Of a DNA stretch of 27,163 nt, positions 2,138 to 2,454 are shown piece after piece. A program made the translations under genes and the position numbers. The stretch lies in the IMG/VR virus record IMGVR_UViG_2531839527_000008; one strand, given 5' to 3'. The DNA comes from a virus (Duplodnaviria > Heunggongvirae > Uroviricota > Caudoviricetes). The first letter of the stretch is position 1. Every line of letters begins with the position of its first letter. The notes beneath the pieces were generated by a model that was given only the letters and a program-made list of their open reading frames with translations, ran no database searches and was not told the origin of the DNA.

Positions 2138-2154
2138 AACACCAGCAAACAGAT

Positions 2155-2187
2155 AAAAAAGGGCCAGCCAATTGGCCAGCCCTTCTT
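2155..2187. terminator. hairpin terminator between convergent yfiB and rplS
   Basis: A-run, then imperfect GC-rich inverted repeat GGGCCAGCC-AATT-GGCCAGCCC (7 of 9 positions pair), then TTCTT. Confidence 0.5.
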
Positions 2188-2212
2188 AACAGGATGTCGC
2201 TTAAGCGAAATC

Positions 2213-2227
2213 TTAGTTAAGACGCTC
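2213..2227 (-). other. rplS: last four codons plus stop of rplS (ERLN-stop); probable prophage attachment core / attL junction
   Basis: Minus-strand reading GAG CGT CTT AAC TAA = ERLN-stop, the remembered RplS C-terminus; the preceding codon reads W (TGG) instead of the expected K, and AT-rich non-host sequence follows from 2228. Confidence 0.45.
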
Positions 2228-2454
2228 CCAATAAAACCACATAAAAAACATATAATTATAATAAAAACAATTAGTTAATTTAATTTTTAATGCAGTGAAT
2301 TGCAATATTCTGCAACCTCCGCCGCCACTTTGCCGCCACTTAAAGCTTTATACCACACAGACTTTAGTATACCCGAGTGAAACGCTAACACATGAGGTAG
2401 TTGGAAAATTTCCGTATATGTTGTAATATTGATACGCATTATATGATTTTTACC

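Follow-up and report, generated by a model that had tools for sequence, protein, structure and literature searches.

The window is a stretch of 27,163 nt (IMG/VR record IMGVR_UViG_2531839527_000008) in which the host gene yfiB gives way, by way of a fragment of the ribosomal protein L19 gene rplS, to phage DNA. yfiB occupies positions 1655-2137 on the plus strand, as identified from the list of open reading frames (ORFs) and from the yfiB annotation in strains E1535 and E1739. A terminator scan places a G+C-rich hairpin with a 14-pair stem and a T-run on the minus strand at 2156-2187. An orphaned rplS 3' end follows at 2213-2227 on the minus strand, where comparison with E. coli K-12 identifies the codons GAG CGT CTT AAC TAA (Glu-Arg-Leu-Asn-stop) as the C terminus of K-12 L19, ...IKERLN*. 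The next minus-strand codon past this tail is TGG, whereas native rplS has AAA (Lys). The G+C content drops abruptly at this boundary, from 0.51 at 2100-2199 to 0.23 at 2200-2299. Positions 2228-2341 form an AT-rich stretch (23% GC) that ends in two tandem arm-type repeats, as judged from comparison with phage PsP3 and a pattern search. A gene for a 346-aa tyrosine integrase (int) lies beyond it at 3516-4556 on the minus strand (Pfam Int_N, 3.9e-31; Phage_integrase, 2.9e-20).

These features very probably mark the left attachment site (attL, arranged B-O-P') at 2213-2341 of a complete 32.8-kb temperate myovirus of the PsP3/186 type (Peduoviridae, Eganvirus-like). An earlier note on this DNA had read host sequence, a yfiB terminator and then the rplS codons ERLN-stop on the minus strand, up to about 2227, with AT-rich phage DNA from 2228. 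That boundary turns out to be exact to the base, with homology to empty sites lost at 2227 and the G+C content falling to 0.23 beyond it. The same note took the hairpin for a yfiB terminator, a label that needs revision. Its minus-strand score and T-run identify it primarily as the native Rho-independent terminator of the rpsP-rimM-trmD-rplS operon, and it may also act bidirectionally to stop read-through from yfiB and int.

A 13-bp core at both ends of the prophage

The window stops short of the right attachment site (attR), and the far junction was taken from near-identical genomes. Strain E1739 (NZ_CM180506.1) served as the proxy; it is collinear with the window and differs from it at 3 of 27,163 bases. 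Strain E1535 was dropped for this purpose, as its tail-fibre segment is inverted relative to the window, and its attR is identical to that of E1739. Comparison of repeats at the two junctions of E1739 yields a common core of 13 bp, AGTTAAGACGCTC, at 2215-2227 of the window. Within 37 kb of E1739 this sequence is present exactly twice, starting at 2215 and at 35007 (35007-35019), a separation of 32,792 bp. The junction zones share no longer exact repeat, and this one sits precisely at both host/phage transitions, so that the boundary is not a chance feature. A second type of E. coli prophage, carried by strain PKF8, which resembles phage 613R3 and lacks the cargo insert described below, has the same 13-bp block of identity at both of its ends.

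The core spans the last four codons of rplS and the first base (T) of its stop codon and reads GAGCGTCTTAACT on the coding strand. Its second copy in E1739 (...gcgttatcAGTTAAGACGCTCtttgatacgagc) leads directly into an intact rplS gene, and the L19 protein encoded there is identical to that of K-12. The stop codon of this gene is TGA rather than the native TAA, since its final two bases are phage-derived. The repeated core and intact rplS that the earlier note expected at the far prophage end are thus found in E1739, 32,792 bp away.

The unoccupied locus can be read directly in K-12, where the order is yfiB, the same hairpin and rplS. Up to 2227 the K-12 sequence is the same as the window, and beyond this point it runs on as ...CTCtttgatacgagc into rplS. 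The core is present once in this bacterial attachment site (attB), and it also occurs in the phage attachment site (attP) of PsP3 and in attL of 613R3. A 191-bp junction query matched all 5426 complete E. coli genomes, but in 5358 of them the match ends at query base 78, which corresponds to window position 2227. The full junction is present in the other 68, with an identity of about 100% in 19 of them and of 80-90% in 49, and is common to independent complete assemblies. With the K-12 empty site as the reciprocal query, 5341 of the 5426 genomes are uninterrupted and 85 are split, among them the 68 with this junction type. By these counts about 1.3-1.6% of complete E. coli genomes have an occupied rplS site, and comparison with the unoccupied yfiB-rplS locus, which the earlier note had proposed, establishes that the sequence from 2228 onward is not native. 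In the occupied state the native operon terminator is stranded at attL beside yfiB, parted from rplS by the prophage.

The host DNA on the other side of yfiB carries a separate rearrangement. The end of an insertion sequence IS1 copy, at window positions 1 to about 310, truncates yfiR; the yfiR 3' fragment alone is left (322-423), and dgcN follows at 413-1639. This IS1::yfiR junction recurs across 53 complete genomes, and many of these are O6:H16 or 'E'-series human isolates. YfiR is the periplasmic repressor of the diguanylate cyclase DgcN/YfiN, and its loss would be expected to de-repress DgcN.

Phage arms and the phage attachment site

The P' arm is 83% identical to the attP-int interval of PsP3 up to position 2338, and its two arm-type repeats (GCCGCCACTT) lie at 2321-2330 and 2332-2341. 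On the other side, the P arm near attR carries three TGCCGCCA repeats (36104-36143 of locus L001). These repeats (TGCCGCCAnnT) flank the core on both sides and fit the arm-site consensus of 186-type integrases, tgccGCCActt (PMC3448106), so that they are putative Int binding sites. The pattern GCCGCCAHYT has 5 matches in 45 kb, compared to an expected 1.03, and three of these matches are located within the arms.

A minus-strand terminator is also predicted in the P arm at 36156-36182 of the same locus, with 11 pairs (AAGGGGTTAGCTATTTGCTAGCCCCTT) and then a T-run (TTTTATTGG). This predicted hairpin is about 40 nt past the new rplS stop codon and is conserved in the attP regions of PsP3 and Midge. 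The phage thus appears to furnish both a replacement stop codon and a predicted terminator in place of those that its integration displaces.

Free phage genomes of the same group already contain the core. In PsP3, TTAGTTAAGACGCTC is located between ogr/pag and int and matches the core exactly; the interval from ogr to int reads ...gctcTTAGTTAAGACGCTCctactg..., with the same hairpin before the core and the same AT-rich arm after it. Midge has TTAGTTCAGACGCTC at the equivalent position, with one mismatch in the core, and the GenBank record of 613R3 crosses the same junction from int into yfiB and dgcN. Because the free PsP3 and Midge genomes already hold the core, the repeat is a core that the phage brings with it rather than a duplication of the target site. 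All four of attP, attB, attL and attR are visible in sequence data for this phage group. The attP of the excised phage is expected to read ...GCGTTATC-AGTTAAGACGCTC-CCAATAAAACC....

Site-specific integration with a core that overlaps the last L19 codons, as the earlier note had suggested, agrees with an adjacent int gene, a core at both ends, an empty site and a phage attP. Int-mediated recombination between attP and an attB made up of the last 13 nt of rplS would generate attL and attR, with strand exchange occurring within the 13-bp identity or at the edges of the core. Int, as a lambda-type tyrosine recombinase, would bridge the arm-type repeats (two in P' and three in P) and the core, and a host bending protein and a 123-aa protein encoded at the Apl/Cox position may assist excision. 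The P arm would then complete the stop codon as TGA and bring in a Rho-independent terminator. L19 is unchanged and the operon is predicted to be still terminated, because the P arm gives the remainder of the stop codon and a new predicted terminator.

We infer cleavage, the roles of integration host factor (IHF) and of the recombination directionality factor (RDF), present excision competence and terminator function from the established model of lambda/P2/186 integration. Inverted repeats that might serve as core-type Int sites (GCGTTAT/AAGACGC in attP and TCTTA/TAAGA in attB) were rejected because they are out of register between the two sites, and for this reason we make no claim on the positions of cleavage. 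Two copies of an octamer, TTAGTTAA, are present, one in the core region at 2213-2220 and the other 58 bp into the P' arm at 2271-2278, where it overlaps an IHF-like, near-consensus sequence, AAACAATTAGTTAA. We give this repetition no weight, as the whole surrounding block is conserved in PsP3, 613R3 and Midge.

The rplS tail and its integrase clade

To follow the site beyond E. coli, the Int protein was scanned against one genome per GTDB species, which gave 56 loci. For the 34 loci with Int at least 72% identical, the int-side junction alone was checked. In 29 of these, GAGCGTCTTAACT is present downstream of int with at most two mismatches, and in four more the equivalent place has an rplS tail that is synonymous or nearly so (such as K-R-L-N-stop). 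An rplS-tail core is thus found in 33 of 34 loci, with L024 as the sole exception, and in most of them it is directly followed by the conserved host sequence downstream of rplS (gattcgcttaagcgacatcc...). The clade loci are labelled with at least 16 named genera, among them Escherichia, Enterobacter, Citrobacter, Kluyvera, Yokenella, Kosakonia, Pectobacterium, Brenneria, Pantoea and Erwinia. One locus (L031, CACSKA010000005.1) is labelled Chryseobacterium sp. even though it has an enterobacterial-type integrase, the rplS-tail core and enterobacterial sequence downstream of rplS; contamination or mislabelling of the assembly is the probable reason.

None of the 21 loci with Int 53-62% identical has the rplS-tail core. 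In the four examined, members of a sister clade (L033, L040, L041 and L048; Int 58-62% identical), the SraC/RyeA-SdsR/RyeB small RNA (sRNA) locus is instead found about 100 bp away, at about 4120-4270 (Rfam, 128-159 bits). The distance from int to the junction is alike in the two clades, about 100-130 bp, but the attB of the sister clade is this sRNA locus and not rplS, which shows target switching within the integrase family. On the evidence of these loci, the rplS tail is the specific and standard attB of one PsP3-like integrase clade. The earlier note had called the integration site apparently unusual, a description that finds no support in a tail used in 33 of 34 clade loci, a junction type present in 68 E. 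coli genomes, and an interval with a tabulated Salmonella case.

That case is phiSPU2, a 31.1-kb prophage of the P2 type in Salmonella Pullorum (PsP3, 90%) recorded as inserted at 'yfiN-rplS' (PMC6449608, Table 1, 2019). It is the same type of phage in the same chromosomal interval of another host species, although the interval alone is given there, with no core or overlap with rplS codons. A 2011 survey of P2-like att sites gave no integration site for PsP3, and we found no description of the 13-bp rplS core for PsP3 or E. coli in the searchable literature. The base-level description is a small addition to a phage type, a mechanism and a chromosomal interval that were all known before.

The closest relatives of the window prophage are PsP3 (Eganvirus PsP3, NC_005340), SEN1, SW9, SI22, Midge and 613R3, which are like the window in gene order and have 88-97% nucleotide identity over 72-83% of its phage part. 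The attP of the PsP3 group, between ogr and int, has the rplS-tail core, arm repeats and predicted replacement terminator found in the window prophage. The window prophage differs from the group in having a 1.2-kb insert with a HEPN-like gene and an altered Int C terminus. The extent of core identity with E. coli attB also differs; it is 13 bp in the window prophage, where the stop codon becomes TGA, and 17 bp in the PsP3 attP, where TAA is kept.

Coliphage 186 has the same type of integrase and the same arm consensus, and its core likewise restores the 3' end of its target (PMC3448106). However, that target is a tRNA gene (tRNA-Ile, ileY/ileX) with a long core, whereas the window prophage uses the end of a protein-coding gene and a 13-bp core. 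Integrases of the 186 type tend toward tRNA genes (PMC3448106), and the PsP3-like clade is an exception to this trend because its target ends a protein-coding gene. The 3' end of rplS is also the target of catalogued streptococcal prophages, including those with integrase type GBSInt3 in Group B Streptococcus and, between gph and rplS, Phi1802.2/Phi743.3 of S. pyogenes. The same gene end is targeted in these Gram-positive hosts, but with a different published core (GATTCCGGCAGGGGACAT). Presumably the use of rplS in streptococci and enterobacteria represents convergence on a conserved gene end. A related strategy is known from phage 21 and e14, which integrate into the 3' end of icd, an essential or highly conserved protein-coding gene, and carry a substitute for the end that they displace. 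Phage 21 swaps a far longer segment of icd and alters amino acids, whereas the window prophage exchanges at most 13 nt plus the stop codon and leaves the protein unchanged.

Prophage genes, cargo and the standing of the junction

According to RefSeq annotation of E1535 and E1739, the genes between the two cores include int, a DUF2511 gene, cI, the gene at the Apl/Cox position, cII, fil and replication endonuclease A. These are accompanied by portal, terminase, scaffold, capsid and lysis genes, and by genes for the baseplate, tail fibres (with an invertible segment), sheath, tube, tape measure, D and ogr. The canonical P2 order, int-cI-apl/cox-cII-fil-...-A-...-Q-P-O-N-M-L-...-D-ogr, is found, with a switch of the 186 type (annotated CI, CII-family and Fil proteins) instead of the C/Cox switch of P2. 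Over the phage part of the window, vB_EcoM-613R3 has 83% coverage at 96.9% identity, Midge 73% at 91.4%, SEN1 75% at 90.0% and PsP3 75% at 88.8%. The Eganvirus placement is by nucleotide similarity and gene set, not by formal ICTV species or genus thresholds.

The int gene has 80-86% nucleotide identity to those of PsP3, 613R3 and Midge. A cI-type immunity repressor gene of the 186/PsP3 type is located at 4926-5786 on the minus strand, as annotated in RefSeq for an identical protein. The candidate RDF is the 123-aa protein encoded at 5908-6279 on the plus strand, which is assigned by its Apl/Cox position and by the annotation of Midge. It is 98% identical to CPTMidge_034, labelled Cox by the depositors on the basis of their HHpred match to a DNA-binding protein of Mesorhizobium R7A, and it had no match in a Pfam scan.

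The invertible segment with tail-fibre and tail-fibre-assembly genes (25987-27163) is inverted relative to E1535 and collinear with E1739, and in both strains the annotation gives the invertase beside it as a pseudogene with a frameshift (L001 29077-29276; L062 27861-28060). A 291-aa pentapeptide-repeat protein without a PADLOC match is encoded at 21859-22734 on the minus strand, opposite to its neighbours, between tail genes S and V, the known position for accessory genes in P2-like tails. A variable region at 10100-12906, between replication gene A and portal gene Q, encodes DinI, several small ORFs and a 334-aa protein (11902-12906, minus strand) that had no Pfam or PADLOC match; this region is the classical defence hotspot of P2.

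A departure from the PsP3 group is a 1.2-kb cargo insert at 2339-3549, which separates the body of int from the P' arm repeats. Homology to PsP3, 613R3 and Midge halts at 2338 and resumes at 3549-3552, and the insert, which is absent from all three, has 32% GC compared to 52% elsewhere in the prophage. The end of int in PsP3 and 613R3 coincides in part with the P' arm repeats, which there code for ...KVAAEVA*. The segment at 2311-2338 is the remnant of this ancestral int 3' end, and the present int ends ...CNGFKWKD*.

The insert contains orf269 (2590-3399, plus strand), which encodes a HEPN-like protein annotated as hypothetical (WP_001394629.1). The protein had no match in our local copy of Pfam and a weak match to RTasHEPN in PADLOC (E=1.2e-4). 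Its homologues form about 15 clusters, some with a precomputed PF27216 label, and share an invariant R183-N-x-I-I-H188 motif, which has the Rx4H form. This form is typical of HEPN domains. In Morganella, a homologue shares a small island next to icd with an integrase fragment and a RelA_SpoT-like gene. In eight other clade members (L012, L031, L051, L053, L055, L057, L058 and L060), cargo of 0.9-1.4 kb likewise separates int from the rplS core. The contents of this slot differ and are AT-rich, with RelA_SpoT-domain genes (L031, L053 and L057; CapRel-like by domain), an FRG-domain gene (L012) and genes for small membrane proteins. They agree with the report that the 'integrase-att' slot of P2 is a minor defence hotspot (PMC13586616). 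We tentatively consider it possible that orf269 is an uncharacterised single-gene HEPN ribonuclease (abortive infection/toxin) in the int-att slot of a still-mobile phage, in which Int works despite its swapped C terminus and displaced arm sites. The HEPN-like cargo gene is a reasonable candidate for anti-phage testing.

Some observations weigh against this reading of the junction. The attR was read in near-identical genomes and not in the contig of the window itself. A 32-nt attP reconstructed from the left half of attR and the right half of attL had no matches in IMG/VR. The insert replaced the last ~12 codons of int and shifted the gene 1.2 kb from its arm sites, so that Int in its present form is putatively active at most. 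The sole rival explanation with real weight builds on such points. It holds that the junction arose as a true attL and that the prophage is now grounded, with excision blocked by the cargo insertion or other lesions, and persists as a fixed genomic island. The exchange of ...KVAAEVA* in PsP3 and 613R3 for ...CNGFKWKD* in Int, the frameshift annotated in the tail-fibre invertase and the lack of an attP form of this exact phage in IMG/VR would all fit such an element. However, the prophage still has its core, the repeats of both arms, int, cI, the RDF candidate and every structural gene in intact form, and the catalytic region of Int (...LRHTF...GHANIRETMKYAHF) is kept. The cargo-bearing version also recurs, with 99.4-100% identity, in 19 genomes that differ in country and source, and E66, a listed member of the host lineage marked by IS1::yfiR, has the cargo-less phage type at the rplS site. 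Finally, the cargo of similar size in the same slot of eight other clade members suggests that the arrangement is tolerated. We regard a grounded prophage as unlikely.

Explanations that dispense with phage integration fare worse. A short repeat at the ends of an element is also a signature of transposition, and the repeat is no longer than 13 bp; it might be a 13-bp target-site duplication or the trace of homologous recombination with a captured rplS fragment. This origin is highly improbable and is excluded by two observations: the core pre-exists in the ogr-int interval of free PsP3 (exactly) and Midge (with one mismatch), and the junction does not change its position between two types of E. 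coli prophage or across 33 of the 34 related genomes. In addition, there is no transposase, whereas a tyrosine integrase with arm-type sites is present, and 13 bp is far under the length required for RecA-dependent recombination. Least probable is that the DNA from 2228 onward is native to the lineage or reflects an assembly artefact, with no mobile-element boundary at all; no observation speaks for it. We could exclude this from the direct joining of yfiB to rplS in 5341 of 5426 complete genomes and from the end of the junction query at 2227; the agreement of independent complete assemblies on the junction and the abrupt fall in G+C content at the boundary argue against it as well. Integration of a PsP3-like prophage by its own Int accordingly remains by far the preferred origin of the junction.

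With the attL core at 2215-2227 and attR 32,792 bp downstream, the exact limits of this PsP3-like prophage are fixed. The 13-bp attB fills in, for the clade, the site left blank for PsP3 in the 2011 survey, and it can aid the delimitation of prophages and the design of attB/attP polymerase chain reaction (PCR) assays. Beyond correct annotation the finding matters little. It does illustrate cleanly how a phage can take the end of an essential and highly conserved ribosomal protein gene as its target and supply its own stop codon and predicted terminator. The swapped stop codon and terminator of rplS could change expression of the rpsP-rimM-trmD-rplS operon in lysogens. A conserved gene end, combined with a self-supplied stop codon and predicted terminator, would explain how one clade uses this site across many enterobacterial genera.
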